Source of the DNA: Gnetum montanum
Taxonomy: Eukaryota; Plantae; Gnetophyta
Length of the DNA stretch: 64,000 nt
Assembly: GCA_015680685.1 (NCBI GenBank)
Contig: MNCI01003141.1
Location: forward strand, 4,404 to 68,403
Direction: 5' to 3'
Positions 10,817-64,000 of the stretch are shown piece by piece. The notes beneath the pieces were generated by a model. That model was not told the origin of the DNA. It was given only the letters and a program-made list of their open reading frames with translations, and did no database searches. Both the position numbers and the translations under genes were made by a program. Numbering within the stretch: the stretch's first letter is position 1; every line of letters starts with the position of its first letter.

Positions 10817-10822
10817 ATTTTC

Positions 10823-10840
10823 TGGCACTAGAAGGAGGGC
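10823..10840 (+). promoter_or_regulatory. Primer-binding site of element A (TGGCACTAGAAGGAGGGC)
   Basis: TGG-initiated motif just 3' of the LTR end; the same motif occurs at 27380 in element B. Confidence 0.75.
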
Positions 10841-11003
10841 TTGGCCTTTTCCATGTTTTACGGTAGTCCTGCAAGCATTTTGCATCATGCGATGTAGATT
10901 GGTCGCTTCAACAGTTCTTCTGGAACCTAGCAGGACGTAAAGCCTTAGATTATCGCTAGATTTTCTTGTTTCCATCATTTTCAGTCCTTTTAGCTTCATA
11001 ACA

Positions 11004-14790: not shown

Positions 14791-14869
14791 ATAGATCAAG
14801 AAGCATCTACACCTAGTGTAGCAACCCCATTGCTTCCTACCCAAGCACCATCCTTGTGTATTCACACAA

Positions 14870-15097
14870 GGGCCAGAAATGACCTAAAACTAGCAACAAC
14901 CCAAAATGGCCTAAAACTATGCTACACCATGGCCTGAAATGACCTAAAACTAGCAATTGCCCGAAATGGCCTAAAACTAGCAATGACTCAAAATGGCCTA
15001 AAACTAGAAATGGTCCAAAATGGCCTAAAACTATGTTATGCCATGGCTCGAAATGGCCTAAAACTAGAAATGGCCTGAAATGGCCTAAAACTAGCAC
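14870..15097 (+). repeat. Tandem array 1 of element A (~30-bp unit, AAATGGCCTAAAACTAG)
   Basis: About 8 visible copies directly after gag-PR. Confidence 0.9.
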
Positions 15098-15258
15098 AAA
15101 AGAGTGAAAGTTTAACATGACATTTAGCATGTACACAATGCATAAGCTAGCATAAAATCAATTCACCTCTGTATTCAAATTTTTTTTCTTTTAGACAATG
15201 TTTACAAACATTCTACAAAAACTCAAAAAACATTTTCAAAGAAAAAATCCCCATGTTA

Positions 15259-19739: not shown

Positions 19740-19885
19740 TCTGCTTGCCAACTCCTCCTCGTTGCTATGTCAAAAATCGCCTTGCTCTTCGATAGCACCA
19801 TCGTTCTCACTTTGAAATCACTTTGTGCTCCAAATGTGGGCTCTGTATTGTTACGATGAAAATAGCAAGTTTAATAGAGGTTAAT

Positions 19886-19898
19886 CCCTATTTATAGC
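19886..19898 (-). promoter_or_regulatory. TATA box of antisense gene in A
   Basis: Minus strand gctataaataggg about 150 bp upstream of the ATG at 19739; positional equivalent in C at 56413. Confidence 0.6.
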
Positions 19899-20084
19899 AG
19901 TAATAGTAAAAAAGTGAAAACTTGTCATTCTCTCTCTCTGTTTAATGTGGAGTGCACCATGCAACATAGCATGCTCACCTTGACATTGTAGCACTATTGG
20001 CATTAAAACCTTGACATGCTTCAAGCTGACCATTCACTTTCCCCAAAAACAAAAAAATATATATATCTAACTTTATCGGACCGA

Positions 20085-20300
20085 AAAAGACCTTAAACTA
20101 GCAATCGTAGCGTAGTTGCAACTTTACTGGTCTGGAAAGACCTTAAACTACCAATCGTAGCATAGTTGTACTTTAGTGGTTTGGAAAGACCTTATACTAG
20201 TAGTCTTAGTGTAGTGGTGATTTTCACTGTCTAGAAAGACCTTAAACTAGCAATTTCAACCTGTTACACATTTGTAGTCTACAATGACATTAAACTAGTA
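20085..20300 (+). repeat. Tandem array 2 of element A (~50-bp unit, GACCTTAAACTAG core)
   Basis: Five copies of gaccttaaactag-like motif between the antisense-gene TATA and pol. Confidence 0.8.
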
Positions 20301-20564
20301 GTTTCACACTTTTGCATTGGAATTTTTGCATTTTTTGCAGTTTCGCATTTTCACATCGGTAGTTTTGCATTTTTCTTTTAACAGTTCTGCATCTCTATGC
20401 TTTAGTAGTCTAGCATGACTTTAAACTGGAAAATTTTAATCTTTATATCATACTTCGCTAGTTACATCTCATTGTTGTTTTTCAAGTTTTCATTATATGC
20501 GATTACTACCAATAGGTACCTCTTAACGAGGCTTTCATCTCATTTTGGAAAGGTTGAGCAAAAA

Positions 20565-23500: not shown

Positions 23501-23795
23501 TATCAACCTTAACTCAATAGAGGGGGAGCATGCACAAACGCTGAGTCGCATAGAGAACTACCAGAGCAAGAAGCAACAAAAACACCAAAAAAACCCACAT
23601 CAATGACCAATACAAAAGGGAGACATCATCCTCAAGGCTGTCCATGAGCATGTGAGCAAATTCTCAGCCAATTGGAAAGTCCCATACATGGTCACCAAAG
23701 CCTTTGAGAATGGAGCCTTCAAGCTGGTGGACATGGATGACAACGAGTTCGCCAACTTGGTGAATCACTCATACCTGAAGGTGTACTATATCTAA
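20565..23795 (+). pseudogene. pol: Element A pol: RT-RNase H-archaeal RNase H-integrase (part of RT lost in N gap 21137-21158)
   Basis: VFAWSYSDM, WVSNIVVVSKK, YVDD, aRH FD...CTKNVAKYEGLL...DSQLVVNQ...NIVAETLA, IN HEGLCG, WGLDLIGP, EYFTKWVEA, FSANWKVPY. Confidence 0.92.
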
Positions 23796-23814
23796 GCACA
23801 TGAAGTAGTCAAGA

Positions 23815-24125
23815 AAACATCTGCTATGATGTGAAACTGGAAAAGGTGAGCAAACATCTGCTATGACATTAAACTTTCATGGTTTCATAAACGTTCTCTA
23901 TGACTTAAAATTGGTGTAGATCATCCGCTACAATGTAAAACTAGAAAAAAATGTTTTCTATGATGTAAAACTGGCATAGATCATCTACTACGATGTAAAA
24001 CTAACAAAAAACATCTGCTATGATGTAAAATTAGCACAGATCATCTGCTATGATGTAAAACTAGCATAACACATCCACGGTGATGTTAAATTAGCACACA
24101 TGGTCTACCAGGACCTTAAATTGGG
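23815..24125 (+). repeat. Tandem array 3 of element A (~30-bp unit, CATCTGCTATGATGTAAAACTRG)
   Basis: About 10 copies immediately after the pol stop codon. Confidence 0.9.
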
Positions 24126-25467
24126 TCTGTGGCACATCCCTAGCATGCATCTACACCAAGTACACATCAAGAGAGCATGCAAAATGCTGATGTGTGATGG
24201 GATGTTGCAGTTCTAGAACATAATTCATGATGCATTGAGAACACAATCTAGAACATATGCAATGCCGCCATTCCTAGCACCTTGTTGATCCCCTAGATGT
24301 CGTATGACATCTCATTGAACCCTTAGACCTACCATTGCCATAGCCCATCACCCTGATGGTAGTTCCTTGGTTAGTGCCTACTTCTAGAGTTCTAGTAATA
24401 TTGTGGCCTAGCCACAATATTATCACCCTCCATCTCCCTGCCAGCATCTAGGCTCAAGCGACATTTAGCTATGTGGTAACTGATCCCATAGCTGAACTGA
24501 GAATGCATGCCTTTGGCAGGTATTCCAAAGCATCTGCACTCACGGAAACTCACTGCTTCTTCAATGCCAACTCCTCCATCCTAATGATGTGAAGGGTATT
24601 GCTGACCTTCCTACTTTGGACATGATGCATCAGCAAAGGTGTCCAATAGCTTCAACAATGTCTACAACAAGCAAGATCTTTGCCCTCATTTGGAATCATG
24701 GCAATTTTTGCTACTTTTCTCTCTATCATGTTTGTAAGGTGCAACCAAAGGTGCATCTTGTCATAGTAGCAAATGCTACAACATTACAAAATGATTGTCT
24801 TGACTAGCTTGGCTACTTCACAGTGCACATCATGTCCTACCTTCTAAGCTTCTTCCCCTTACCTCACTCCCTACATCTACAATTCCTACTCACTCCCCTC
24901 TTTTACAAGCTTTTTTCCAACGCTTGTTAAGCCCTCCTGTTTGCTCAACCACAAAGACCATGATGTGTGTAACATAGCTCACTGCATGGGAAGTATCTAT
25001 AGGCAGGTTAAGGCCCCCATGCTGATGTAACACAACTCATTTGGGGAAAGAAACACCAATCCTGCAGCAAGGTTTTTCGCAAATTTAAGTAGAAAAATAT
25101 CAAAAGGAAAAAGCATAAGAGAGCAAAAACGTAGTGCCTAACACAAATGGCATGTAAGCTGTTTCGCAATCACCCTCTCCAAGAGTTTTGAAGAGAGGTC
25201 AAAGGTCAGCAAGAGTAAAGATGAAAATGTGAACACCTCCCTCACAAGCACGCCAATGAGGGACTCTGCTAAGCCTCATCTTTATCCTTCTCCTAAACCT
25301 CATTCCTCCTTGCTTAGCCCTTTTCCCCCAACAAAAACAAATGCAACACTCTCAAGCATAGCTAAACGATGTCTTGATGATCACCACACGGTAATGTTAG
25401 CATTTTATCTTCTGTGGTGTTTCATATTCTTTGTTAATGGCTCTTGGATCCATCCTCTAGACATTGA

Positions 25468-25481
25468 CAAAGAGCAGCCAA
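25468..25481 (+). promoter_or_regulatory. Polypurine tract of element A
   Basis: CAAAGAGCAGCCAA-TGAAACACCCTAAATTTT aligns with CAAATAGGGGCCAA-TCAAACACCATAAAATTT on the minus strand of element C. Confidence 0.65.
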
Positions 25482-27227
25482 TGAAACACCCTAAATTTTC
25501 AAGGCATTCTTGCTTCACTAGGCCATCATAATTCAGGCAGTGTCACAATAGTTCATCAGGAGATGGATGTTCTGGGCTCTAGGCTATACAGTTTCACAAA
25601 TTTTCTAGCTAGGTAATTCGTCCAGCCGATAGCCTACATAGAAGTAATGTGGAGAGTTTTTGGCGATGCTCAAAATGTGCAAAATAGTTTGGAAAGTTTT
25701 CTAGTTAAGGAGTTTGCTATGCTATGCCACACTATATAGCGTAGTAGACTTTGGAAAATAGTTGTTCAAATAGTCAACTACAAATTATTGCAAGAAAAGG
25801 CACTACGTAGCATAGCACAGTGTAGGGATAGCAAGATAGGAAGGCTTAGCCTACTTAGTGATTTTCAATTACACTAAGTTAGCATTCCTAGCCTTCAAAA
25901 ATAGTTGCTTCTCTCAACTCCAAGTGCTTCAGCAATGGCTCCTTCACAAGAAAACAACAAACTTAGTAGAAAAGTAGGCTATCTTAGTTGCTATGCTACG
26001 TAGCATAGCATAGCATAGCAACTCTGTGAATGGCATCTTAAAGGGCAGGATCAGCAAGTTCGCAAGGTTCACAGCATAAAAGGCAAAGTTTGTAGATTGG
26101 CGACATTTTCACGACTAAGGCTAGCTGCTACGCTATGCTATTCTCTATAGCATAACAAAGTCTAGCAAGTGTCCGAAAATTAGTCGAAGTGCTTCAAAGG
26201 TCTCTGACACATGCAATAGGACACAACACAAGTTTTTGCTTCAAACTGATGGCTACGCTATGTTATGCTGCATAACGTAGCACAACGTAACAAGTTGCCA
26301 TGCTACACCTGCATGCTACGCTACAAATCATGGCATGGTGTAGTAGATAGTTACGCCACATCAATGCAGTTCACCTAATTACACCGTTGGCACACATCTC
26401 CAAACTCTGACGGTGCAATTACAGTGTGGCAGGTTCGCAATTACAGCATGGCAGGCTCGTCCAACAGATATGCATGTCCAACGATCATGCATGCCCATTC
26501 AGCATAGACAATTTAACATAGGCCCAAGGCATGTGGTGTCCAAACCACATCTTTCGCATGCCCTTGTTCCTATAAATACCCCAATGAACAATGCTCCAAA
26601 AAAACCATTTTTAATCTTTTTGGGGGGCTTGTTTGGCAATTTGAACAGTTGATAATTTTGTTGACTAGCAAGCAAGAAAGTTAGTATTGTATTCTTGGCA
26701 TTGTAAACATCTTGTTTGACACCACAAATATTTGGCACTCTTGCTTGGCATCCTTTCCTGCTCTTTTCCACTATCCTCATAGCATTTTGTATTGTTGACT
26801 CCTAAATCTGTGTTCAAGTATACAACTGTCTTCCTCTAAACATCTTGATTACCTTTGGGATGTCTGCACCTCCCCACGTCATGCAACAAATTGTATCCAC
26901 CTTGGTAGAGTGGAGTCACATTCTTGAAGCAGTGCATTTTTATAACTGAAATTTACTTTGTTTTCTTGCTTATTATCACATTTCACATTTTTTTTTACCC
27001 CTTTTGCATTTAAAGTTATCATTTCATGATAGAAGTCTCATTTTCAAATTATCTATTTACGAAAGGTTATATTAACACTGACTATGTCCCTGTCTGATTG
27101 ACCTGATCGTTCAGGGCACCCCATTTCCATTTTATCTAGCACGACCCTCACATGAATATGGGGTTAAGACTATCATGATCAACGACCTCTTGGTGTTTTT
27201 CAGCCATCGATGTTTTCAGTCGCTACA
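25482..27227 (+). repeat. Element A 3' LTR (~1.75 kb)
   Basis: TGAAAC...GCTACA termini; 3' half matches the 5' LTR; U3 is rich in TAGCRTAGC/GCTAYGCTA motifs; TATA near 26570. Confidence 0.8.
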
Positions 27228-28129
27228 TTTTACATTTTGTAAGTCCCTAGGTGATCTTCTCGATTGTTTAGGGTACTAAAATTTCATTTTTTTTGGAGGC
27301 CCTATGGATTTGGGATTGAGGTTGTTGTGCTAGATCCATTGGTTTCCTAGTGATCGACATTACTGGTTCCAGCAGTTTTTGGTGCTAGAAGGAGAGCCTT
27401 TGACTAATTTTTATGAGTAGATCTATCTTTCCCATAGCCAATGTTGCATGTTGAAAGCCTTTTTCTGACTTTTTTCAACCAAAAATTTGAAGAACCAATG
27501 CTGATCTTTCCTCCCCTATGACCAAAATTGTAGCAGGGAAGTTGTAGGTGGTTGGGTGTTGGCTTTTCACAGCAATTGCTGTGAGGCTTTTTAACCCGAA
27601 TCCAACATTAAAATTTTTTCCCATTTTTCTTTTTTTGCTATCATATTTTTCAATTTCCAAATTGGGTGATGTAATCCTTTTGAAAACCATCAAAATTTCA
27701 AAAGTTAGCTTTTCCCCATCTTTCCTAGCTGAGAAAATTGGTAGCCTATTTAAACCAAGGTTTAGTGGAAAAATACCAACTTTCCACTTTGGTTTTTAGC
27801 CTTCCCCACCCTCATCAATGTTGGATTAGAGAGGTGTAAGATTCTCCCCATCTCACCCCCCTTCTTTCCTCCCCTACCATACCCAACGGAGAGGTAATTG
27901 GGAGGCCAATGTGGATGAGGATTTACACCAACATTCCCAGCTTTCTATTTTTGATAAAGGGGTAAAGCCAATTACCTAAACTTACTAATTATAGAAAGTG
28001 CTTCATTTTTAGTCATATTTACTTCCTTTGATCATTTTGAATTCCACTTGTTGGGATTTACCTCTATTTTTCCATTTTATAGCCTATTTAAGCCATTTTA
28101 GCACTATAACAATGTCTTTCTAGTAGTCC

Positions 28130-31100
28130 ACCATGTTGCCTCTTACCTTCATTGGTGAAGGTCCTAGCCAGTAAGCCATGAGGATCTATGACCCCAAAGA
28201 CCATGCTATCATCAAGTGTAGGAAATATTTGAGGGTTAGGGAAAAATTCTTGATTTTGTAGCTATACATGAAGACCAATATAATTACATTTGTGGCAACA
28301 TATAGGTTGGCATGCTAATTCCATGTTTGGAAGTAGAAGCCAAAAGGGAGTTTGAACTCATCTACCACAATGGTAAGGATTACATCCCTTTCCCCTATGA
28401 CCAAATACCTTTAACTAATATCTATGTGGGTATTCTAGTCCAATTGATTAAGATGGAGGAAGAATATGACAAGCATAGCTTAGAGGAGCAACAAAAAGAG
28501 GAAATTGAATTTAGGGTAAAATTTAAGCCTAAAAACATCCTAGGGGGATTGTTCCAACAAGAAAATCCCAAGGCCACTGAGCCTTCCCCTCATGCCTTTG
28601 TTTCCTCCATGGACGTGGTACCGTCATCTTCCACTCCCTTCTACCCTACCACAACTAATTCCATACTAGTCATAGCCACATATCAAACTCAATCAATGCC
28701 ATAGCCCATGACCTATAATCCATTAGTGCCTTTTTCCATAAAAACCTAATCTGTACAACCATCGATAGTGGTTTTCACCACCATACATCCATTGACCAAC
28801 CACATGGGATCCATAATGGGGCCTTCACCAAATCAGGGGTCACACACCCCCTTCATCTTATTTGTGCCATAAGTACTAGCATAAACATCCTTTTCATTGT
28901 TTATCCCACAAACTGTAGCCATAACATAATCACTTCCTTCCATTTTGCAATCCATAGTGTGGCCACAAGTCTCACAGCAAATGCCACAACCATATGTGCA
29001 AGCTTCATAGCTAATAGGGCCACCCAAAAACTAGATCAAGCATTTCAGATGATCCAAGACCTAACAAAGAAGTTATAGAGGATTAAAGCCTCTACATCCC
29101 AGAGTGTCAAGATTATGAATTTCTACTAGGATGATCCCATCAATCCTATGGTTCCACCCTTGACACTTTCTCATGGTGTCGCTATTCCCCAATTTATCAA
29201 GTATAATAGAGAAGGTGATCCCAATACTCATCTTATTACTGTTCAATATAAGTTATTATTCTTATAGCCATGGTGTCATATCCTCATGAGGATTTTTCCT
29301 ATGTTCTATACTGGAAAAGTACTTGATTGGTATCACACATTACCTAGAGGATCCATATCCTCTTTGGAGGACTTGATAAACTAGTTTGTCAACCACTTCA
29401 AGTATAACTTGAAGTTCAACACCATGCTTGACCAACTCATGAAGGTTAAGGAGGAACCCCTAGAACTTGTACAAAAGTTCATTCAATGGTGGAATGGATT
29501 GCTAAATGAAATACTAGAACCCATCACTAAGGCCCATCTTTTAGCGATATTCAAGGGGAAAGTGAACAATTTTATGAAATCAAAACTCTATTATCTTGAT
29601 CTGTGGTTCCTTAGCTAAGCATTTTCTCAAAATAAGAATATAGAGGATGTTGTAGAGGCTAGTCATGACCTATCCTACATAGCATATAAAAATTAACATA
29701 CACATAGAGACAAGGAAAAGAACAAAAAAAACAATGTATCTGTAAGAATAGTGACCAAAGAAGCAAAGACCACTAACCAAGGGTCAAGGAACAAACCACC
29801 TAAGGCCCCCACTAATAACCATGATAGCCAACCATCGACATCTAGGGCCACTACATCAACTACAAATAGACCAAATTTTGAGTGAAAATATAGAAGCAAA
29901 TGCACTACCTTGCCTTTTAAACCATTAGAGTTACTAATCAAATTTTGAAGAGTGGGCATATGCAATACAAATAGATGATCAAAGTTACTTGAAAGAAACA
30001 TAAGCATCTATGTGAAATATACAAGGACCCCACTTGAGCAACAAAGGATTATCCAAAACTACCTATGTACTTCAAGCAAGACTACTTTTTCCATTATTAT
30101 CAACTGCCTGATCATGACACAGACTTCTACCTTGCACTAAAGGATGATGTGCAAAAGATGGTAGATAGGAAGGAGCTAGTATTAGATGCTTCCAACCTAG
30201 TTCAACCATAAAATTAGTTGACGTAGGTTACAAAGACCCATTGAATGCTAATGATGTTCCTTATGTTATTTTAGCATTCAACATTGATGATGATCAGAGA
30301 TCCTCAAGAGAACCATTCATGATTTGAGTATCCCCTTGCAATGAGAGGGCTTCTTTAGCTTCCACCAACTCAAGATATCCCTTTGTCATAAAAATACCAT
30401 CATGAATGCATCTAAAGGAACCTTTTGTCATTAGGGTGCCCAAGCCTAACAAAACCCAACCAACCATAGCCCAACCAACCACATAACGACCTCTTGTGGT
30501 GGCCAATGCTACTACTTTTCACTCACAACCAATGATTAATAACTAGAAAATCTCAACCAAGCAAAGGAAGAAACATAAGAAAAAGCCTAACAACAAGGGT
30601 GATAAGTTGATAGAGGCAGAAGAGGAACTGGGACCACCAAAGCCCACTCCCCTCTCAGCTATACCCATGACCTCCTCTACCCAACATGTTCTAACTAAAA
30701 GGCCATAGAAGAATACCAAAATCCATAACTAGAAGAATGAGGGAAATCCTTAGCAATAATAACCTAACACCAAAGTTTAGATTTTGGGGTGCATGGAGGA
30801 AGTGAAGCAAAACCAAGGCAAGTAGCCTACAAATGATGATAAAACTTCCTTAGTGTGATGGATTAGGTTAGATAATCTCTTAAGCAAAAGAATACAACCT
30901 TGAGCTTATATGACCTGATCATGACTTTTGCCACACATTGTGAGGCATTAGTCAAAATGTTAACTTCCATCCCTATTAGTAAGGAAATCCCTACTGATGA
31001 GGAAGCCATCCATGCAGTGCTAGTTCCTATGTCATCAAGGGAAGAAAAATCAACATCCTTAGTATTTTTCCATAGCAAAATCAAGGTTAATCGCTAAAAT

Positions 31101-31760
31101 GGTGAAGTAACTAGGGCTCCTCTATTCATAACCATAAATGTAGGGTAGTTTAAAGTGCATTAGATGCATGTTGATAATGGAGTCATAACAAATTTCATCT
31201 CATGCACCATTGTTGTGTGCTTGGGCTTGATCGAGCAAATACAACCTACAATAACTGTAACTCTTAAATCCTTCAATAGATCAAGGATTACTATCAAGGG
31301 GTTCATTTCCTTGGATTTTGTGGTTGGAAAATAATTCCCCATAACTTCCAATTTCTTAGTGATGGAAAAGACACTAGGGTTTAGCCTTATTCTAGGAAGA
31401 CCATGGTTGGATCAATTTTGGACCATTTTCTCAACCACCCATCAAGAAATTCATCTTCCTTACAAGGAAGGTAAAATGATCATTCATAGTGATAGCATGG
31501 TTCCCTTGGCTATCAATAATGTGAACATAGAATAGGGATTTGAAGTGGAGCTTCAAGAAGAAGCTCCTAGCCATGAAATTCCTCAACCCAAGAGGGAACA
31601 AAAAGCCAATGATGATAATGATAGGAAATAGAATGTGTTATGGGATGAACTCCCTTTCAACATCATCAATGAAGGTGATGGTAAATATAAGCTTGTGTAG
31701 AGTAGACCTTATTCATTCTCTAATCTTTCAAAGATTAGGAAAAATCTACATAGGTGCAGT
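28130..31760 (+). pseudogene. gag: Element B gag-protease (heavily decayed)
   Basis: KYNREGDPNTHL, GKVLDWYHTLPRGSI, LDQLMKVKEEPLELVQKFIQWW, MHVDNG, LILGRPWL, WDELPFNIINEGD (matches C WTELPFNVISEGD). Confidence 0.8.
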
Positions 31761-32029
31761 GCACATTAACCTTTACATGCCCTTAAAACTAGATGCATCA
31801 ATGTCCATGTAGCCTAATCTTTCTTTCTTAATTTATTATACCTTTTTATGTATTTTTTTCACCCTTTATGCATGCAACCTAAGTTTCTACTTTCATTTGC
31901 AATTTTACTTATATATATTACAATGTTTCTTTTTATTTACTTTTACTCATGTCATAAACATAAAAAAGCCTTAAAAACTTTAAAACATATAATCACCAAA
32001 AAAAAATATAGGTTTCTCTTCAATAAAGC

Positions 32030-32250
32030 CTTGGTATGGCCTTAAACTAGAATCATAGCCTACTATGGCCTTAAACTAGCATCATAGTATACTAAGACTT
32101 TAAATTGGCAATACAACCCACCATGGCCTTAACTTCGCAAAAACAACATGGCTTGCCATGGCCTAAAATTGGTAAAAACAACATGGCCCATCATGGTCTA
32201 AAAGTGGAAAAATAATATAACTTGCACTCACTATGGCCTAAAACCAGTAA
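32030..32250 (+). repeat. Tandem array after gag-PR of element B (TGGCCTTAAACTRG core)
   Basis: About 7 copies at ~30-bp spacing, same core as the arrays in A. Confidence 0.8.
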
Positions 32251-32536
32251 ACATGTATTTTATTACATTTATCTTTTACACACATCACTTAGCCATTTGA
32301 CTTTATAGCCAAAATCATCAACATAGGCATTCATAATGCTTAGTAGAACAATATATATAGTCAAGAATAAAATCAAAATTTAAATTTAAAGTGTCTATAA
32401 CATACATAGCCATGGCCATATCGTGTGGTAAAATGTCCAAAAACTAATAACAACCATATACGACATAGTCTTAGCTAACAACAACCATTAACATAAAAAT
32501 AAAAACAAATAGCCAACAAGAGGGTGATGGAGATTG

Positions 32537-33415
32537 TTAAGAGGCATTTTCAAAAGGAAGTGGTGGGTCATTCACACCCTCACTATTGGGGCCACTAATG
32601 TCTCTTGATTCCTAAAATACAACAACACATAACTAGTTAGTAACCAATAGCCAAAACCATAAATGAAGACTAAAAATATAAAACATAAAATATGTCAAAC
32701 CTATGGAGACTCCAACTCCATAACTTATAGGGGTAGATGTGGAAGGCCTTCATCAAAACAATGGAGGATATGGTCCTCCATCATGTAGACCCAATCAACA
32801 TCCCTAAGATCAATGTTGGAGAGGATTCTAGTCCTGTCTATTGTACTCCATGTAGAAGGCTCTTGGGTAATAATAGGCATAGAGCTCTTACCTACGGTAG
32901 TGGTAATATGAGAAGTAGGGGATTACTCTATCATGAGAGTGCTCTTAAAAATTTTCTAAGAACTCTCCACCTAGATCCCCTAGATGAATATATCTTTCTT
33001 GCATTGTTCAACTAACTCCTCCTTAAGCCACTTGAGGTAGGCACCATGATCCACCTTGAATTTCCACTTGTAGGCCTTTTATTTCTTACCCCGCTCTAGG
33101 ACCCAAGTTTAGTAAGCTTTTCAATCCTTGACCTTCTAGAAGATGAGGTCCATATGCATCTACTATTTTTCCATCTCTTGTAGGATTGCTACTTGATCCT
33201 AAATAACATGGCAGTAGTGGGTCCATGTGATTTCTTTGGTCTACAATTCCCTTGAGTTAGCCAGTGGGGCTTCCACAAAGGCTTTGCAGTCTTGGAGATC
33301 TCTAATTACCTCCTCCTACCATTGAGTCTTCTCTATTAAGGCCAAAAATTGTTCCCATAGGGATTTGTTGGACTTCTCCAATTCCCATGAAGTTTTGGCA
33401 CATGACATTGCTAGA
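32537..33415 (-). pseudogene. Last two exons of the antisense accessory gene in element B
   Basis: Exon 7 end PSTWSTIDRTRILSNIDLRDVDWVYMMEDHILHCF (C: RPTYSAINKGKTLADVDL..DWDSVSEEEILRRL); donor at 32700; exon 8 32611-32537 ESRDISGPNSEGVNDPPLPFENAS*. Confidence 0.75.
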
Positions 33416-52104: not shown

Positions 52105-52440
52105 CTGTCAGTTTATAGTCTTGGCAGACTATCATGGGATAGTTTTATGTCATAACCTGTTGGACATTACCTATTTAGCGTCGTGGCAGACGTTACATTG
52201 CTAGTTTTAAGTCTTGGCGGACTGTGAAGAGACAAGCTAGTTTATAGTCTTAGCGGACCCTGATGGTTGTAACGGTGGCAGTTTACTGTCACGCCGGATG
52301 GATGCAAGTTTATCGTCATTGCGGACACTGTGGTGTCAGTTTTAAGTCATAACCCAGGACCATTCTGTGGTATCAGTTTATCGTCATGACTCTAGGACGA
52401 GCTATGGTATCAGTTTATAGTCATAATTCTAGGACTTACA
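52105..52440 (-). repeat. Tandem array after pol of element C (GACTATAAACTG core on element strand)
   Basis: Repeated cagtttatagtc/cagtttatcgtc on +; same position as array 3 of A. Confidence 0.8.
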
Positions 52441-52457
52441 CGTACCTGAGCTTGTAT

Positions 52458-55400
52458 TTAGACGCACAACGGTCTTAGGTACAAGTGATTGCTTGGGTTA
52501 GCAAGCTCGTTCCCTTCCGTATCAGCCAGCTTGAATGCACCATTATCAAATGCCTTGATGACCATGTAAGGCCCTTCCCAGTTGGCTGAGAATTTTTCCG
52601 GGTGTTCTCGAACAGCCTTGAGCACGAGGTCGCCTTCTTGGATGGGGCGCTTGTCGATGTCATTCCGATGTCGCTGTCATTGTTGCTTTTGGTAACATTC
52701 GATTTGATCGAGCGCGCGTACACATTCTTCTTCCACTGAGTCGAGGTCAACGATGCATAGATCATTGTTTTGCCCATCGTCGACGAGTCCAAAAAGTGTG
52801 ACCCTTAAAGATGGTACTTTCAATTCCAAAGGTAAAACAACTTCTGAACTGTAAACAAGACTGTATGGATTTTTACTTGTTGATATTCGGTGTGTAGTGT
52901 GGTATGCCCACAATGCATATATTAATTGTTCATGCCATTTCTTTTTGCTTTGCGTGAGCATTTTCTTAAGTATTGTAATTATTTTTTTATTTGTTGCTTC
53001 TGCTTGCCCATTGCTCTGAGGATAGTAAGGGGATGAAAACGAGTGTTTGATCCCCAAACTGTCACAAAAGGTTTTCATCTCGGCACTGCTAAATTGCAGC
53101 CCGTTATCAGTGATGATTGTCATGGGAATGCCAAAATGGGCTACAATGTTTTCGAGAATGAAATTGCACACGTGCTTGGATGTAGTTTTTCAAAGGGGAG
53201 TAGCTTCTACCCACTTCCTGAAGTATTCTGTGGCGGTTATCATGAAACCGTGCCCTATAGACGATGAGGGTGTTATTGGACCAATGAGGTCCAATCCCCA
53301 TTTTTGGAAGGGCCACGTGATTTGCGCTGTGTGCAATTCGTTCAGTGGGACGTGGATTAGGTTGCTATGTTTCTGGCAAGTATCTCATGTCTTAACCTTG
53401 GAGAGACAGTCATATTCCATGTGTGGCGAATAGTAGCCTAATCGTCTTACTTTTGTGGCCATGGCTTTTGGCGCTATGTGTCCTCCGCATAGTCCCTCAT
53501 GTACTTGTTCAACAATTGTTTGGGCATCGGTACTATTGATGTATGTTAGCAATATGCCTTCGTAGGATCTACGACATAGTGTGTCCCTTACCAGGGTATA
53601 CTGCTTAGAACGTTTCCGCACTGCGTCTTTCTATGCATTTGTTAGATGTCATGGTGTTTCACCACGTAGAAGGTACTCTTTTATGTCATTGTACCATTCC
53701 ACTGCGTGTGTTGTGCTAACAGATGCAATTGGCAATATGTCGGGAGTATCGATTATTGGTTCAGCATAGTTGATTACAGAGCTTGGTAAGGCATGGAACA
53801 TGTCAGGTGATATGTTTAGCACCAATGTGGCTAATGCATTTGCGATGGTATTATCATTTCGAGAGACGTGTTGCACATCAATGTTTTCAAATCGCTTTAT
53901 TAAGTTTTTTGCCAAGTCACAGTATGGTTGTAAGTGTTAGGCTTTGCACGTATAGATGTCTGTGACTTGGTTGAGTACTAGTTGTGAATCGCCTCTGACT
54001 ACTAGCCGTGTGATGTCTGAAGCCAGTGCTGCTGCAAGAACCCTAAGGAGACCTTCATACTCCACTATGTTGTTAGTACAGTGAAAGTTGAAATGGTAGG
54101 TGAAGAGTCGGATCTCCCCGGAGGGATAGGTGATGACAGCAGCTACACTCCCTCCTCGAGAGGTGGATGCTCTATCAAAGATTAGAACGACATCATAATC
54201 TTGGGGCACTATGTGTATGGCACTTATGTTTTCATCTGGGAATTCCAGCTCTATAGTCACTTGATCTAGTGTGGGTGATGTGGCCATCTGATCTGTTATG
54301 GCTTGACCTTTGACTGATGATTGCACTAAGTAGTATAGGTCAAACTCGGCTTCATGGCTTTCCATTGGGCTATTCAACTTGTTTCGTAAATGTTCCCTGT
54401 TATGGCTCTCAGTACATTGTCTTACAAATTATGTAGACTTGGTTACGGAAGAGGTAATGTCACCATTTTCTTAAAGAAAAGACCAAAGCTAAACATGACT
54501 TCTCCACGTCATTATACTTCTTTTTGTGGGCAACTAAGGTGTGGATCAAGTAGTATAGAGGGACTTCGGTCTCGTCATCTTGTTTCTGGCATAGCATAGA
54601 CATGATTGACGATTCCGAAGTGGCAAGGTAGATGTAAAACGATTTGTTGTTTTGGGGTGGGTAAACCGTAGGCAGTCGGGCAAGTGCTGTTTTGATATTT
54701 TTGAAGGCTTCTTGGCACTGAGGAGTCCATTCGAAATGGTCATTTTTACGTAACAGGTGGTTCATAGGTTTTAGTTTGTTCCTTAATTTTTCTACGAAAT
54801 GCCTAATGAACTACAATCTACCTTGTAGACCTCGAAGTTCGGTAAGGTTTCTTGGTGGTTTCAGGTTTGTTATGGCCTTGACTTTATCGGGGTCTACTCG
54901 TATCCCTGCTTCAGAGGCTATGAATTCGAGCATTTTGCCTCTTTTGATGCCAAAGACACATTTTTTGTGTTGAGCCTTAGTTCATACATTAAACAACACT
55001 TTAAGACTAAGTCGAGGTCTTGTACATGTTGTTTGGCCATTTTTGACTTGACCATGATGTCATCCACATAGTCATTGAATGACCGTAACATATAATCACT
55101 AAAGATAAACGTCATGGCTCTTTGATACATGGCCCTAGCATTCTTGAGAACAAAGGGCATCATTGTGTAGCAAAAAGTTCCCCATGGGGTCATGAAAGTT
55201 ATCCGAAGTTGATATTCAGGGTTGATGCGTATTTGGTTGTATCCCGAAAAACCATCCATAAAAGATAGTAAGGCATGCCTAGCAGTCGAGTCAACAAGTT
55301 GATTGATGCTGGGTAGGGGAAAGTCATCCTTTATAGTTGCTACATTTAAATCTCGGAAGTCAATGCATAGGTGAATGCTTCCGTTTTTCTCCAGGACGAT

Positions 55401-55931
55401 GACCATGTTGGACACCCATTCGGCGTAATCAACAGCCCAAATGAAACCAGCTTGGTAGAGCTTGGTGATCTCATTGCAAACTGCCAATGCCACCTCGGGT
55501 TGAACTTTTCATGCTTTCTATTTTATCGATCTCAATTTTGGGTCTAGGATAATGTTGTGTTGGACAATTCTAGGATCTAGCCCGGGCATGTCTGTATAGG
55601 ACCAAGCGAACACTTTCATGTTTTCCCTAAGCACATTCTGAATGTCTCGGGCCAAGTGCGGTTGTAGTAATGTACTCAATTTTAATATTTTAGTTTCCCC
55701 ATTAGGCATGATAATGGGAGTTTTAGCTAACGGATCTTCGGTGATGTTTTCGGTGTCTATGTCAAGGAATTTTGTCATGCCCCCATAATTGTCTATTGTT
55801 TGCCATGTTGAGGCTATGACCACAACGTCCGTCAGTGGACTTAAGTTGATGCAGTTCATGTCAATGCCTCGTGTAATGTTGCCATATGGTCCGTCAATGA
55901 TTAAAGGTGCGTTTAAATGCTGGCAGTCCAT
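52458..55931 (-). pseudogene. pol: Element C pol: RT-RH-aRH-IN (few stops and frameshifts)
   Basis: VFAWSYTDMPGLDP, CIDFRDLN..KDDFPLP, LSFMDGFSGYNQI, YVDDIMV, aRH IFDRAS..TNNIVEYEGL..GDSQLV..NTIANALA, IN ITDNGLQF..YPQSNGQAEATN. Confidence 0.95.
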
Positions 55932-56044
55932 CGAGTTTGTTCCTGCCAATAAACCGAGAGTTGTATGAGCAAAGGGGTATTGTTCTATGCTTTTTGGTGA
56001 TTTAACTATGTGTACGTGTATAATGGTGGATTACCGTCACACTT

Positions 56045-56285
56045 GGACGCATGGCAGTTTAATGCCCTACCAGGTAGTGAGTGGCAGTTGAAGGCCGTAC
56101 CGGGCCGTGAATGGCAGTTTAAGGCCATACCGGGCCGTGATCGGGTAGGGAAATGGCAGTTTAAGGTCGTACCAGGCTATTATGGCAGTTTAACCAGCGT
56201 AAACATGTAAGACGGGATCCATGAAGGAACCAGGACGTAATAATTAGGGAAGTGGCAATTTAAAGCCGTAGCAGGCCATAATGTG
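56045..56285 (-). repeat. Tandem array upstream of pol in element C (GGCCTTAAACTGCC core on element strand)
   Basis: Repeated tggcagtttaaggcc on +; equivalent of array 2 in A. Confidence 0.8.
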
Positions 56286-56422: not shown

Positions 56423-56615
56423 GAAGCGACAGTGTGAGCGATAGCGTAAACTTGTTAAGGCGTAAGTGTAAACCTCAATACCCTAGCGTAAGTGTAAACC
56501 TCAGCATAGATGCCAAGGACTGATCCCCAGCGTAGACGCTGAAGCTTAAACTTCTCAGTGCCAGCATAGACAGTTGCTCAGCATAAACTTAGATCATCAG
56601 CATAGACACTCCAAG

Positions 56616-59600
56616 ATGGGCAACGGAAAGGAAGTGGAGGGCCAGGGGAGGAAGGGTCCCGATCTAACGTTCGTCGAAGAGACGGAAGCCATGCTACAGG
56701 GTCTGCCCAGGCCAAGGATGCTGTCGTGGCTCGTGACATCCCATAGGTAAGCCTTGATCCCTGTCTTTGTTGTTATTTCCATGCTTCTTAGCGTAGACAA
56801 TCCTGGCGTATACGCTGAGCGTAGAGGGTTTTCGGCCTATACTCCAGCATAACTATGCAGCGTAGATGGTGTTTATCAATTTACTAGCATAAGCCCGTTT
56901 CTGTGTTATGTTGGCATACGCTCCGGTATGACTGTGAAGCTTGTCGGCATGTCATCAGCGTAAGTTGTCATATGTGACGGCTTATACGCTGAGGGTTTGC
57001 CCGGCATATACGCTGAACGTGTACAGTTGTCTTTTGGCGTACTGTTTTATTTTCTGGCATAAACAATTTACGCTGAAAGTGAACTCGAGCGTATACGATG
57101 CGGGTTTCTTCAGCATATACGCTGTGCATGAAGGGGTTCAAGTGTCAGCATAGATGCTAAGTGTGGTAGCGTATACGCTGAGTTTAAATCACGTTTTTAT
57201 GTGAAGTGTTGGTTGGCGTATATGCTAAGTTTGAATTACGTTTTTTTACGCTAAGTGCTAACAGTTTGTCCGGCGTATACGCTGCGTATAGCGTATACGC
57301 TGAGGGTGAATTGTGGGCGTATACGCTGTGTACAGCGTATAAGCTGGGCGTAAGTTGTGTTTTTCATGCTAAGTGTAAAGTTTGACTGGCGTATATGCTC
57401 TGTGTACAGTGCATACGCCGAGCGTAAACAGAGTTGATTTTTGATTTATGATGCAAACTTTCATTTTGTGGCATTGCGATTGATTGTAGGGAGAGCAAAC
57501 GCTTCCTTATAATGGTCGAGCTTGTCGGGGTTCTCACATGGGTCGGCCTTGCTCAGGAGGGAAACCGTTCCCCAAATCTAACCATGGATGAAAGTGGGGT
57601 TTGGTTCAGGGAAGGTGCTTGTGAATTCTTGGCCTTTCTGCTAGACAATTTTGAAGTAGCCATGTGGTCGAATTTTGACGAGGTGACTGCATGGAGCGTG
57701 GTTGATGCAATGCTTCTGGGGGCTGCCGAGGGTGTCATGGTTTTCATCGAAGACATTGAAGAGGGGCTATTTTTTGATGAGGATGGTACCACTTGTGGGC
57801 CCAAGTCAACATGCCCGTTAATGCGCATGTGGGCATTGCTGCCCTGAGGGTTGGACTACCTCAATAACACATTGTTTATAGCTCCTCGTGCATATACCCT
57901 ATTCCAAAATCCTCTTGGCACAGTATACAGAGTAACCAGGTGAGACCATTTGACTTTATTACTTTACCTATCATCATTTGATGTTAGTTTTTATTTTAAA
58001 ATGCGTTTGTTTGCAGGCCGAGGACCAACCCATACCGGACCCTCATTGAAGATGAAGGACTAGCCCTCGCTTGCACTGCTCTGGAGGCTTTTATCATAGG
58101 CCCCACGCTTCATGGGATCGTACTAGCTCAGACGAAGGGTTTAATGGCCCATTTTCATAAGCAGTTTTCTAGGTCGTTTGCGATGTGGAAGGCTCGTTGG
58201 TGGCTCCATGAAAACTGGACAGATCAGGGGCCAGTCTTTCTTCATAACTTTGGCAGCACTTTGAAATCTACCACTAACGGTGAGTGGTAACATTTCCAAG
58301 ATGCGTTAATGGGTTTGTTCAACTGTTTGAGGTTATGCTGATATGGTCATTTGAACTTGTTTTAATAGTTGTTGCACCTTCCGGTGGGGATCCCGTGACG
58401 ACAGGATGGACTAAGATAACTTTGTCAATGAAGTTCGGGGAGGTGGCAAAGGTGCATAAATGGCTGCGTAAGCAAGCTTCACCATCCCTTAATCGTTGCC
58501 TAGACGATGCTGGTCTCCTGGAGCTTTTCATGATGCCAAGCCCTGATGTATCCATTAGGGAGATGATCGGGATTGTGGACTCTTTTAATGAGTCTGTCTC
58601 ATAATACAGCACCCGGATCAAGGGTGTTAAGGTGGTGTTTCATCTGTCTCCTGTTTTCTTTTCTAATTTGTTTGGCATGCTGGTAGATGGCCTACCTATA
58701 GTGTTGGACAGATCTCATAAAGAGCTCCAAACAATCTGTGAGCTAGAATCTTGGCTTGGCATGGCCAAAAGCACCAAGGGATTCCCGATGCAGGGGAAGG
58801 AAAAAGTTTTAGAGGTAAACGAATTATACCCCCTGTTTCGGGCACAGGCGTTCCCCAAGACTCTTTCTCAGGTGTGGAGCTTCGGGGTTGAGGCAGTATG
58901 CATTATGCGAACAATCTTAAAAACTGGCATGCGGTATAACTGGGCTCAAGTTTTGTTGGCGGGCCTACACAAGGAGATCATGCGATTACGCTCGAACAAC
59001 AAAGCGCAATCTCACTTCACCTTTGCCTTCTTTGCCAGTTATCTCCGCCATTTTTCCGAATTTCTTGTGGTGCGTGCTGACAACAAGTTCGTCCTACGGG
59101 ATTGGGGTCAACTATCCCGCCCATGGGTCAACCACTTATTTGCAACTGCCAAATCATAGGACGCCCCAGAAGGTATCGATGAGTCTGTGTCTGTTACCAC
59201 AGGGGGATCATCTGGCAATTCCATCCACACACGGGATAGTCTGGGGTTAGAGCCAGATGATGTACCTCTAACCACTAGGCGGGCAGAGCGGGTCATCAAG
59301 GAAACCATTGGCAAAGCCAAGTCGAAGTTGAAAAGACCCAAACGCGCAATAGAGGAAGTTGCCTATATAAACCAGCCACGCGTGAAGTGGATACGCTTCA
59401 AGATACCTGGTAAGCGAAGCTCATCTACTTATTATTTTATCATTTTTGTTTATTTATAACCTTTACTCTAATTGCTTATACGTGTTGTTGCTGTTTTTGG
59501 TTTGAGGCAGTGAGGAAACAGGCCTTGGAGACCATCACAAAGGAGGAGGAGATGAATACAGAGAAAAACAACAAGAAGGAAAGCCCAAAGAAAAGCCCGG

Positions 59601-61097
59601 GTGGAGGAACGGAGCAGCTAATGGAAAAGAACATCGAAACCGAACCATTGGACAACTAGGGTAGTATCGATCAAACACTTCGCAAGTTTCTTTAGGGAGA
59701 CCTGGATTTAGGTGACCCCCTAGAAGGTGATAAGGATAAGGGTATGTATTCCCCCTTTTCGTTCATTTTGTTTTACCAAATCAATTGCCGCTCCTACGGT
59801 TTGTTATTTTCATGTTTTTTTTATGCTTATCAGATGAAGGCAGCGAGATGAGGATAGTGCAGTTGGACGTACCTATGAAGACGGTTCCCCTGGAGAGGAC
59901 CGTTGAGGTTACTTCATCTCGTACCTGTCAGCCACTTACTTGGTCAGAAATGCTAAGTAAGATGGATTTTGTGGATGGGATCACTGAGGAAGTCGTTGAA
60001 CATCTCCAAGATGTCCACCCTGATATAGGTATGAATCACTTAAAGATTTGGAGCTTCACATCTCATTTGTATAGTTTTAACATTTGTATATTTTCTGCAT
60101 GGGCAGGCGCTAAACTAAGATGGGATCCCTCTGAGAGCATCAGCATGGAAAGCTTGGTCACACTCTCCCCAGAAGTGGAGCAAGTGCCAAGGCCTATTTA
60201 TGAGGGTGTTGCGGAAAGCCTTGCGCACAACGCTAAGTCATTGTGGACTTGTAGGTGTTCCATTGAACAGTTGCGGCTACAATTACAAGCAAAAGAGAAG
60301 GAAGTCTCCGAATTGTCAGAGGAACATGATGATTTGAAAGCTTGGTACAAGTTCGCCGCTGCCAGATTAAGTGGAGATCGTTCTTGGTGAACTTCCGAGG
60401 TCACATATACCAGGTATTGGAACTTACTGAATCTTCATGCATCGCTAACTTGGAGGATGGCAGAACGCAAAGTGCAGATCGATCTCCTAAACCTCAAGTA
60501 TCAAGATTGGAAGGCCTTTTCTTCCAAAGTTTGTAAGTGGGGTCAAGATGAGAAAAACCACAAGCATCAGTATAATAAATTGCTGAAAGAGGTGTCCATT
60601 GAAAAACGATAGCTAGAGATGTTTGTGGAAGGTTTAGGCTTGCGTTCTGCCTTTAATACATTTGCCAAAAACACAACTGTAGAAATGGAATCGCCTACAA
60701 GGGAATTTACAATGGCTTCTGGGGAGGTGTCGGTAGGTGAATTTCCTCTAAAACGTCCTACCTATTCGGCTATTAACAAAGGTAAGACTTTGGCAGACGT
60801 TGACTTAGGCTTGGATGGAACAGATTGGGATAGTGTTTCAGAGGAAGAAATCCTCCGTCGACTTGAATTCGGCTTAGGGGGATCCCCTATGGTAAGCGTT
60901 TTGTCCTTAGAAGGTTATTTTATCGAATAACGTTTAAAATTTTAACACCGGATTATTCCTATGTTGGTTGTTTATTATTTTTTTCGCATTTTCAGAATGA
61001 AGGTGGTGATGATACTCACAAGGCTGGCCCCAGTGGAGCAGGGGCCCCTGACACTGGTGGCTCTAAAGGAGATGATCCTCCTGTCCTGGACGCTTAG
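56616..61097 (+). pseudogene. 8-exon accessory gene antisense to element C (~1065 aa; FCP1/SCP-like pseudophosphatase, accessory domain, acidic/basic linker, coiled coil)
   Basis: Exons 56616-56746, 57490-57939, 58017-58279, 58369-59409, 59511-59741, 59834-60028, 60107-60891, 60996-61097. All introns are GT-AG with compatible phases; total 3198 nt = 1066 codons; only scattered point stops. Confidence 0.88.
56780..57430. repeat. Cluster of palindromic GCGTATACGC(T) motifs in intron 1 of the accessory gene
   Basis: Many gcgtatacgctg copies and decayed variants (gcatatacgc, gcgtatatgc). Confidence 0.85.
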
Positions 61098-61472
61098 TGT
61101 TTTTTATTTTTTGTGGTTTTCGCTGATTGATACAGGAATTGTAATTGAAAATGTTGAAAAAAAAGGAACAATTGTACAATGTGGCATGAATAAAATATTT
61201 TTTTGTTTGTTTTCAATCTGGTTGTACATACGACACGAGATTAAACTGTTTTCAGATTTGTTTTTCTATTTTAAATGTAATGCACTAAAATGATGATAAA
61301 AGGTACACGCTAGTTTCGGGCCTGGTTTGCACTAGTTTGAAACTATTTTGGGCCCCCATGCATAGTTTAAGGCCGTTTTGGGTTCCATTGTGATGTTTTA
61401 GAGAAAGGGAGTGAGTGTCTCGGTTGACCGGTCATCTCTGACCGTGGCTAGTTTTATGTCGTTACAGACATG

Positions 61473-61810
61473 ATAGTTTAACGTCATTCTAGACTCGGGG
61501 TATGGTTGTTTTAATAGGTATTTTTAGTTTAACGTCATTTCGGATGAAGGGTAGTTTAACGTCATTCTGGACTTGGGGTATGGTTGTTTTAATAGGTATT
61601 TGTAGTTTAACGTCATTTCGGATGAAGGGTAGTTTAACATCGTTTCGGACTTGGGGTATGGTTGTTTTAATAGGTATTTGTAGTTTAACGTCGTTTCGGA
61701 CGAAGGGTAGTTTAACGTCATTTCAGACTTGGGGTATGGTTGTTTTAATAGGTATTTGTAGTTTAACGTCGTTTTGGATGAAGGGTAGTTTAACGTCATT
61801 TCGGACTTGG
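61473..61810 (-). repeat. 78-bp near-perfect tandem repeat (~4 units) after gag-PR of element C
   Basis: Each unit holds two GACGTTAAACTA cores (element strand); degenerate cores continue to ~61310. Confidence 0.92.
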
Positions 61811-61817
61811 TGTTGTT

Positions 61818-64000
61818 TTATTTTAACTGTTTTTTGATCTTATTTATTTTTATGTCAGGGGGTGTATTAGTCGATACGATTTTGTATTCAGCATCTCCTT
61901 CGCTGATCACGTTGAATGGTAATTCAGTCCAGGAGACATCCGATGGTGTATTTTCGGTACTAGTATTGTCAAGTGTTTCGGTGTCTGTCATTGTTTTGGT
62001 TTTAGGCTCTTGTCCCGTGTTCAAAAGTTCATTACCTACCAGTTGCATTTTGTCTGAGTCCTTTTGACTAGGCTTGTCGAGTTCAACCTACGAGCCTTGG
62101 TTGATGTCTGTGTGCGATCAAATGATGGGAGTGACTGCTTCCCCATGTATGATGACTTCACCACCCTCATAGGGTAGGTGAATCTCCTGATGTATAGGGA
62201 AGGACACAGCTCTCAATTAGGCTAACTAAGGTCTTCCTAATATTAGGTTGAATCTTGGCATTTCATCGACAACCAAGAAGTCAGCAGATGCGGGGAACTG
62301 GTCTCCTGCTATGAAGTCTAGGGTTATTGTGCCCTTGACCAGTATGCGTGACCCGCTGAAGGACTTTAAGCATGTTGTTGTCGTAGGTTTGATTAAGTCG
62401 GTGAGCCCCAGTTGTTCAATGATAGGATATGGTACAAAGTTTGTAGCTGCCCCATCATATACATGGACCCTATGTATCTTGAACTCATTTACGTGTATGG
62501 TTATAAACATAGGGATTGTTGTGGTCTCTCCTGTCTTCTTGTCGACTTTGATGCTATCATCATGGAAGCTCAAGGGCTTAGGACTGACCCCGTGAGATGG
62601 GTACATTACTGCATGAATGGCCGGTTCGCTGGGGGCAAGTCCTCACTGACCGAGATCAATGTGAGCATCCACACTAGAGCTCCCGATGAGTCTGGGATGT
62701 TAGTACCAAGTCATACAAGCTTAAAGAAGTGTTCTATTGTTTCAAGGCTTGTGTGACTTGCGTTAAGGCTGTCGCAAGATCTCTGCTATTAGGGGCGCTC
62801 TTATCAGTGGTGACTAGGTCCATTAGGCCCAACAACTTTATTTCTTTTTTTTGCGACCTATCGTTCTTCTTCGTCGTCGTAGTTTTGGCTGGGTCATATT
62901 GCTTTGACGGTTCACCTTGATTTTCTATGTTTGATTGTTTGTTAGTTTGTGACATAGGCATGGAACTAAGTGGAGTGGGTTTGGGTGGCCCCAGAGCCAA
63001 CCATTGGTGCTCTTTCTCTATGCATTCCCATGTAAGCCTATCAGCTAAGCGTTCCCAATGTGGAGGTGGAGCTAGTTTTGAAGCCTTGGGTTGCCTTGGG
63101 ATGCGCACCACATATGGAGGTGGGTGGGATTGTGGTTGATCTGCATGGGGTGTTTGAGCTAGAGACTGGCTAGGGACCCTAATGACATAGGGGCAAGCTT
63201 TGCCTTGCGCTTTTGAGGTGGAGATTTGTTTGTTATTAGGATTTTTAGTTGTCCTAACAACATTTGGGGATGGTTTCGGTGGAGGTTGGACCTCCGCTAT
63301 TGCGAAGGAGGGTAGTACTCGGACTATGAAGAAAGCAAGTCGAGTTTGGGGAGTTAGTGGCTTTGCGAAAGTGGACGTAGCTGGAGGTATGCAGACGACG
63401 TAGGGCTGCTGGGGGGTACGCGGAAGTTGAGATGTGGATGCCGATACGGTGGGAGGAATCTACACTATGAAGGGCCTGTTAGGTGTTTCTGGTTTACTTT
63501 GAGGGTAGATGGTGTTAATATCCTTGGAATCATCATTAAGGTAGATCATGTTAATCACGTACAGAGCCTCTTTAGTATTCAGGGGATCTTTATACACCCC
63601 CATGGCCTGATTTTGCAGTTGGACTAGGTTGGCCTTGTCAAAAGTGATCTGTCCATCATCAATCATCTGCTGGATGTCCTGCTTCAAAGTGAAGCAGTAA
63701 TCCATTCCGTGCCCGTTGCGTTGATGGTAGTCGCAGAAGCGATCCATCCTAAAACCCTTGGGTACAGGCAGCTTATCCAGCATTGCTAGGCTCGGGTTCT
63801 GTATGAGTTGGTAGAACCGGTCATGCCTTTGGATGGCCACAGGGGATAATTGTTTATGTTTCATTAGCCCAGCTTTCAGGAGTTGATCAAAGAGGTGGGA
63901 TGCTTTCTTCGGTAGAGGCATGTATTGAGAGGGTTCTTTCCTCTCGAAATTACAAGTACGGTTTGTTGGGTTCTGTGATGATGATGACTCCAGGGCTATT
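61818..64000 (-). pseudogene. gag: Element C gag (3' part)-protease
   Basis: FCDYHQRNGHGMDYCFTLKQDIQQMID; IHRVHVYDGAATNFVP..RFNLILGRP; ends ..ELPFNVISEGDAEYKIV..*. Confidence 0.88.

Follow-up and report, generated by a model that had tools for sequence, protein, structure and literature searches.

The window, that is, the whole 64-kb stretch of DNA analyzed here, contains Ty3/gypsy retrotransposons that carry an antisense, intron-bearing accessory gene, one exon of which resembles an FCP1/SCP (NIF, HAD-fold) phosphatase with altered catalytic positions. This raises the question of whether the resemblance reflects homology, and what such a domain might do for its carrier. A sequence-only reading of this DNA had proposed that a host phosphatase fold was captured and kept as a pseudo-enzyme, and the peptides it had quoted from both copies, which are referred to as C and A after their carrier elements, are all present where it had placed them.

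Both carriers show the order gag, protease, insert, RT, RNase H, additional RNase H, and integrase (Table 1), with the additional RNase H (RVT_3) located between RT_RNaseH and rve in A as well as in C. An LTR pair was seen in A only; its copies are 85% identical (K2P 0.166), with approximate ends, and directly after the 5' LTR, at 10823, follows a PBS-like site that presumably resembles the 3' end of tRNA-Asn. The location of the additional RNase H between RNase H and integrase is the rule for Ogre/Retand (excerpts of PMC6317226). The additional RNase H assigns the carriers to the Tat clade, and their domain order is that of Ogre/Retand; the position of the accessory gene is unlike either of these two.

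In A and C, the accessory gene lies antisense between protease and RT, and its site and orientation are the same in the remnant B, as indicated by an exon 7 homologue; neither NIF nor exon 4 was matched in B. The proteases of the three elements are 41-51% identical (51% between A and C). Since the gene holds the same place and orientation while A and C are only 54-56% identical in pol, it appears to be old and to have been under selection. An intron-bearing gene outlasts reverse transcription only if it is antisense to the genomic RNA, and the antisense orientation would account for the retention of introns by this gene. Other features of the window include a fourth gypsy remnant (44966-48200, plus strand) with gag and RT-RNase H, in which no accessory gene was detected, and a direct repeat of 236 bp (2776-3011 and 13389-13624, 96% identical), one copy of which lies within the gag of element A. 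The CpG observed/expected ratio is 0.7 in C, twice the 0.35 of A, and a near-perfect inverted duplication with a single N on each side (50406-50511) is likely an assembly artefact.

The accessory gene of C was traced through eight exons from an ATG at 56616 to a TAG at 61097 (3,198 nt, 1,066 codons), corresponding to a predicted protein of 1,065 residues. The exon borders are predictions, picked by eye among candidate splice sites; all seven introns are GT-AG and phase-chained, and the chain contains no frameshift and seven internal stops. In seven of the eight exons, the chained frame is the one with the fewest stops, and the eighth ends at the terminal stop. It is likely that the exons encode one fused protein. 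In A, homologues of exons 2, 4, 6, and 7 were identified (exon 4 homologue at 18133-17072), with exon borders partly placed.

Exon 4 of C matched PMD (PF10536) with an E-value of 0.064 and 12.9 bits, below the cut-off of 34.9; this match was obtained for the C copy only, not for A, and disappears on longer exon 4 reads. In the ESM Atlas, exon 4 retrieved unnamed plant clusters, one of which (rank 15, score 0.84) has DUF1985 on 13% of its members, and Pfam gave no DUF1985 match for this exon. Exon 3 was considered as the C-terminal helix of the NIF domain, which was not supported (hhalign to NIF, 0.1%). The strongest 19-residue hydrophobic stretch of the C protein reaches 1.65, and a membrane anchor is not evident. 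It should also be noted that a near-palindrome of the type GCGTATACGC is abundant, and partly in tandem, in intron 1 of the C gene (56800-57430) and beyond the C integrase (50522-50925).

Table 1. Coordinates of the carrier elements, the exons of the accessory gene, and the spacer arrays within the window (exon borders are predicted).
Feature	Position	Strand	Remarks
Element A	10005..27231	+	LTR pair ~10005-10820 and 26415-27231
Element A, coding parts	gag 12356-; protease 14060-14602; RT-RH-aRH-INT 20580-23913	+
Element A, array past protease	14864..15096	+	27-bp unit, 8 matches
Element A, accessory gene	15259..19740	-	ends approximate
Element A, exon 7 homologue	16284-15832	-
Element A, exon 2 homologue	18574..19023 (read 19023-18574)	-	one in-frame stop (codon 40)
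Element A, array ahead of RT	20086..20428	+	50-bp unit
Element A, array past integrase	23889..24098	+	30/60-bp unit
Element B remnant	29936..33399	+	gag, protease, motif array 32035-32104, antisense exon 7 homologue
Element B, exon 7 homologue	33399-32728	-
Element C, array past integrase	52140..52435	-	37-bp unit
Element C, RT - RNase H - additional (archaeal-type) RNase H - integrase	52419..56030	-
Element C, array from gene 5' end to RT	56051..56170	-	30-bp unit
C gene, exon 1 (predicted)	56616..56746	+	ATG to GT donor, phase 2
C gene, exon 2	57490..57939	+	NIF/FCP1-SCP-like HAD domain; one in-frame stop at 57845 (codon 119)
C gene, exon 3	58017..58279	+	open; no family match
C gene, exon 4	58369..59409	+	weakly PMD-like; basic tail with 8 K/R in 17 residues; two stops
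C gene, exon 5	59511-59741	+	two stops
C gene, exon 6	59834-60028	+
C gene, exon 7	60107..60891	+	putative coiled coil; weak coiled-coil-family matches only
C gene, exon 8 (last)	60996..61097	+	ends in TAG
Element C, array from protease to gene 3' end	61363..61810	-	78/27-bp units, 11 motif matches
Element C, gag end and protease	62091..63999	-	element runs past window edge

Sequencing data indicate that the family is large, since 19,280 contigs of a DNA sequencing run match 55800-62300. In two poly(A) runs of one study, 9 and 3 reads (12) from related copies skip 60892-60996, a joint that is one base off the predicted last GT-AG intron and absent from the DNA run. Among the best 15 of 51 joints, it is the only one with RNA support; coverage of exon 2 by RNA reads is low, and none of these 15 joints involves it. 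Most RNA reads are less than 90% alike to the copy in the window, which indicates that relatives are expressed, not necessarily the window copy itself. The strand split of one run, in which 51 molecules begin at one place, was discarded as evidence for the direction of transcription, because the minus first mate was also dominant over the protease and the stretch preceding RT.

The two copies of exon 2 are each exactly 450 nt long, preceded by AG, followed by GT, and identical in their phases. The reading frame of each is interrupted by a single stop, whereas the two remaining frames on that strand contain 8 and 9 stops in C and 13 and 9 in A. At the protein level, C and A are 30% identical, with a Smith-Waterman score of 150 (1000 shuffles: 26.5 +/- 4.3, maximum 48). 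Identities at codon positions 1, 2, and 3 are 0.48, 0.59, and 0.29, a test that is modest on its own (shuffle-control maximum for position 2: 0.56); the pattern is similar in exon 4 (0.46, 0.60, and 0.32) and pol (0.67, 0.78, and 0.36), and third positions of exons 2 and 4 are near random between A and C.

Within the window, no third copy of exon 2 was found, so that the NIF-bearing copies are C and A only. Searches for homologous proteins with the exon 2 pair returned none at E<=0.01 (134 candidates) and, in a wider search, none at E<=10 (2,643 candidates); the wider search with the exon 4 pair likewise returned none among 2,773 candidates. A phmmer search of 1.84 billion representatives yielded two matches, both to repeat proteins, which were discarded as relatives of exon 2. 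No further copies were identified in phage records, JGI metagenomes, or viral contigs, collections that are poor in plant repeats, and therefore absence there is no sign of rarity.

Several lines of evidence identify exon 2 as almost certainly homologous to the NIF/FCP1-SCP family (PF03031), as the sequence-only reading had suggested. Among the 56 stop-to-stop frames of the window that were compared with Pfam, NIF was matched by the two exon 2 frames only, and it is the sole Pfam family listed for either. NIF was thus the top match of both copies, and in both it remained under the gathering cut-off of 21.8 bits (15.6 bits for C and 20.3 bits for A, with the stop read as X). In the ESM Atlas, NIF was present in 30 of 30 matches (best score 0.93, with 196 of 256 features in common), and the top cluster is mostly from Streptophyta, as far as its few members with a record indicate. 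Furthermore, we employed an independent profile built from 88 natural NIF proteins of viral and bacterial records, which recovers CTDNEP1, SCP1-3, UBLCP1, Tim50, and Fcp1 in the PDB. When 2,544 six-frame segments of the window were compared with this profile, the top five were segments overlapping both exon 2 copies (E-values from 1.7e-5 to 3.3e-3), followed by a segment with an E-value of 2.2. In hhalign, the exon 2 pair reached 85.9% over 110 columns against 5 NIF rows and 96.8% (E 2.7e-10, 86 columns) against 47 NIF proteins, while the exon 4 pair as a control reached 0.6%.

Structure prediction went only part of the way: on the two exon 2 rows alone, AlphaFold gave a pLDDT of 39, and the HAD-like alpha/beta model obtained after adding 73 NIF rows (pLDDT 77.6) is not independent and indicates compatibility only. 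With this model, built on borrowed NIF rows, Foldseek returned NIF structures as best, with FCP1/SCP relatives at the top. Sequence searches of the PDB with exon 2 yielded chance matches only, and NCBIfam gave no match for exon 2 of either copy. Exon 2 is presumably most like a plant/fungal subfamily of NIF proteins, characterized by the motifs D-x-N, W-S, and N-T-L...N-P, which may be the donor. As for other NIF proteins encountered, two IMG/VR viral contigs (3-778; 656-1431) carry tandem NIF-domain genes with intact motifs, and free-standing NIF proteins whose motifs are intact occur widely in genomes of Myxococcota, Variovorax, and Stenotrophomonas.

For the comparison of active-site residues, 73 of the 88 NIF proteins served as control rows; these were chosen on motif I, so that their motif I conservation is by construction, and they were not chosen on motif IV. 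At motif I, where the controls read D-x-D-E-T, C has E-L-V-G-V and A has E-I-V-G-V. At motif IV, the pairwise and hhalign register places A-P (C) and A-C (A) where D-D is found in 71/73 and 70/73 controls; MAFFT shifts motif IV of A eight residues on, to E-N, again without Asp. In both copies, motifs I and IV therefore retain none of their four Asp residues. The motif II Ser (S60/S62, in the context W-S) and the motif III Lys (K105/K106; Lys in 72/73 controls) are kept in both. Degenerate members of the NIF family are known, including Tim50 and a fungal DXNXT group (excerpts of PMC13216928), and CTDNEP1 carrying D67E,D69T is inactive and retains partner binding (excerpts of 10.1101/2024.09.23.614427).

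The loss of aspartates had been claimed to be ancestral rather than due to decay, and this is in line with our findings. At three of the four Asp positions, C and A have E, V, and A in common, an agreement not expected from random decay, and none of these replacements is the transition expected from methylated-C decay. Since the common residues are encoded with differing third codon bases, the aspartates were most likely lost before the split of A and C, as far as two copies can tell. Taken together, the residues suggest that the exon 2 domain is very probably catalytically dead.

A candidate target for the accessory protein lies within the same elements. Tandem Repeats Finder returned 31 rows for the window, which we merged into 19 arrays, eight of them at three spacer sites: after the protease, before RT, and after the integrase. 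The periods of these eight differ (27, 50, 30/60, 29, 35, 78/27, 30, and 37), and a core TA(3-4)CT[AG] is found in 7 of the 8 compared to 0 of the 11 other arrays. A wider 14-bp pattern, RYGRYNTWAAACTR, has 30 matches, all of them at spacer sites and all element-sense, compared to 0.21 expected; this expectation is optimistic because the arrays were already known when the pattern was defined, yet the pattern recurs in three diverged elements. The fixed orientation of the motif suits an RNA signal and a DNA site equally.

We tentatively favor, with somewhat less than even confidence, that the accessory protein is a self-targeting regulator, anti-silencing or activating, which includes a dead phosphatase module. 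A more specific version, which we consider possible and no better than that, is a VANC-like, sequence-specific anti-silencing system of a retrotransposon, in which an antisense, intron-bearing gene would combine the disabled HAD phosphatase with a PMD/DUF1985-like reader and a coiled coil, and its product would recognize the 14-bp motif amplified in three arrays. The dead NIF/HAD module would form the protein-binding part at the front of the 1,065-residue Tat accessory protein, which might bind the motif arrays of its own element. The PMD/DUF1985-like part could read the motif in DNA in a VANC-like manner, with the coiled coil oligomerizing on the arrays, while the NIF module, which retains the Ser and Lys of the phosphate site, may hold a host partner as Tim50 or PP7L do. 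The bound protein would then likely keep the element transcribed despite host silencing. The steps from protein to motif are all ones that we infer from sequence, and it speaks against self-targeting that the PMD match is weak and confined to one copy, that the Pfam NIF matches are below the cut-off, and that the C gene contains 7 stops.

Since the motif could equally act in RNA, a Rev/CERV-like factor has to be considered, which would bind the motif in genomic RNA and aid export or packaging of unspliced RNA, with NIF as an adaptor. We regard this as unlikely. All 30 motif matches are element-sense, the insert of 5-6 kb that separates protease from RT, at the place of an intron in Ogre (excerpts of PMC4408406), is bordered by an array on either side, and CERV of Cer1 provides a precedent (PMC10309623). 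However, no conserved donor/acceptor pair was found around the insert in C, no RNA joint skips the insert among the best 15 of 51, no Rfam family matches the window, and PMD relatives have been described on chromatin.

It is rather unlikely, too, that exon 2 represents a captured fold without a ligand, serving as a structural or oligomerization part, with the arrays serving gag, pol, or a host factor. Such a role would fit the equal conservation of exons 2, 4, and 7 between C and A (29-30%), exon 2 being no better conserved than the other two, and the capture of exons by transposable elements is very common in large plant genomes (excerpts of PMC13477047). It would not explain why core residues of motifs II and III outlast 70% divergence or why the length and phases of exon 2 are fixed.

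The sequence-only reading had gone further and proposed that the dead domain binds the phosphorylated Pol II CTD, acting as a decoy, transactivator, or integration tether, for which we found no specific support and which we consider improbable. FCP1/SCP relatives, which head the structure list, are CTD phosphatases, the phosphate-site Ser and Lys are kept, and the D-to-E mutant of the relative CTDNEP1 still binds partners. However, PF03031 is a broad family that also includes Tim50, UBLCP1, CTDNEP1, and many bacterial and viral proteins, many of its members being unrelated to the CTD. In SCP1, the Tyr after motif II has a role in CTD binding. This Tyr, present in 73/73 controls and aligned with that of SCP1, is replaced by T (C) and E (A); moreover, the Pro of R-P is lost in both copies, and the motif II context is W-S as opposed to F-T-A-S in SCP1 and CTDNEP1. 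A strongly acidic stretch past the third strand in C, where the exon has a net charge of -13, also argues against CTD binding, and no link to the integrase was seen. The motif arrays, which the sequence-only reading did not mention, suggest another target than the CTD.

That exon 2 encodes an active enzyme after all, one with unconventional chemistry or a substrate other than protein, is very improbable: human TIMM50 has been reported to be active despite its degenerate motif, and a fungal DXNXT group of NIF proteins exists (excerpts of PMC13216928), but four of four Asp positions are changed, and the motif IV D-D is present in nearly all controls, which were not chosen on it. The seven introns and the occurrence of PMD in MULEs (excerpts of PMC4408406) might suggest that the gene is a DNA transposon in its own right, or a host pseudogene, that became nested within the retrotransposons. 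This is highly improbable given the identical site and orientation in three elements with diverged proteases, the absence of inverted repeats between the gene flanks in A and C, and the lack of any transposase match in Pfam.

Extra antisense genes have been described in Tat retrotransposons, and their role is stated to be unknown (excerpts of PMC7264820 and PMC4408406). A survey of the literature, which did not extend to Steinbauerova 2011, REXdb Additional files 1 and 3, or the supplements of PMC9289625 and of the bioRxiv papers, revealed no published description of a retrotransposon that contains a NIF domain or has an antisense gene located between its protease and RT, and the consulted sections of Retand and review papers (PMC11963269, PMC7264820, and PMC9289625) mention no NIF/HAD domain. 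The motif arrays are a new observation, and within the scope of this survey the NIF domain and the position between protease and RT appear to be new; PMD and PMD-coiled-coil extra ORFs are already known from Tat. The latter are found in TatIII and Ogre (lineages IV and V of Ustyantsev), which, like the carriers described here, are Ty3/gypsy elements with an additional RNase H (excerpts of PMC4408406 and PMC6317226). In their extra ORFs, a coiled coil comes after the PMD-like part, as predicted here with a sub-threshold PMD match. These ORFs are antisense in lineages III and V (excerpts of PMC4408406), but are located at the 3' end (antisense) or the 5' end (sense) rather than between protease and RT (excerpts of PMC4408406 and PMC6317226). 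Moreover, the extra ORF of Ogre has PMD and that of Retand Transposase_28 (excerpts of PMC6317226), whereas the accessory genes of A and C gave no Transposase_28 match and a PMD-like match in C only. The REXdb table of eORF domains contains no NIF/HAD domain, unlike the eight-exon gene described here, although this table (Additional file 4) comprises E<=1e-10 matches in at least 5 elements and would miss a diverged NIF domain.

Gypsy elements of orchids have likewise stably acquired an enzyme domain from their host, namely AlkB, which is recent and active with its catalytic residues kept (excerpts of PMC9289625), in contrast to the highly diverged and disabled exon 2. Among cellular proteins, Tim50 and the fungal DXNXT NIF group share a degenerate motif I with exon 2, but are cellular genes, with no sign that either was the donor (excerpts of PMC13216928). 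In MAIN/MAIL1-PP7L, PMD proteins are paired with PP7L, a protein of phosphatase fold that is 'presumably inactive', and in MAIL3 PMD is fused to PP7 (PMC7156037, PMC9899485); these are host genes with a PPP metallophosphatase rather than a HAD fold, and the likeness is an analogy only.

The closest functional parallel may be VANC of VANDAL elements (Mutator-like), which is an accessory gene with exons encoded by a transposable element, as is the gene described here, and which binds short motifs amplified in tandem repeats of non-coding regions, with units varying by family, similar to the arrays of A and C (excerpts of PMC5735166). The DUF1985 domain of VANC, which PMD-C resembles (10.1101/2024.09.27.615353), has no more than a faint lead here, namely the Atlas cluster with DUF1985 on 13% of its members. 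VANC is carried by a DNA transposon and not by an LTR retrotransposon, and the consulted sections of PMC5735166 name no phosphatase-like part comparable to the NIF domain. With a named fold, a clear sign of switched-off chemistry, and a candidate target in the same element, the role of such extra genes can now be tested on a defined pair of protein and motif; should binding occur at the level of DNA, anti-silencing of the VANC type would no longer be confined to DNA transposons and would include an LTR family of high copy number.
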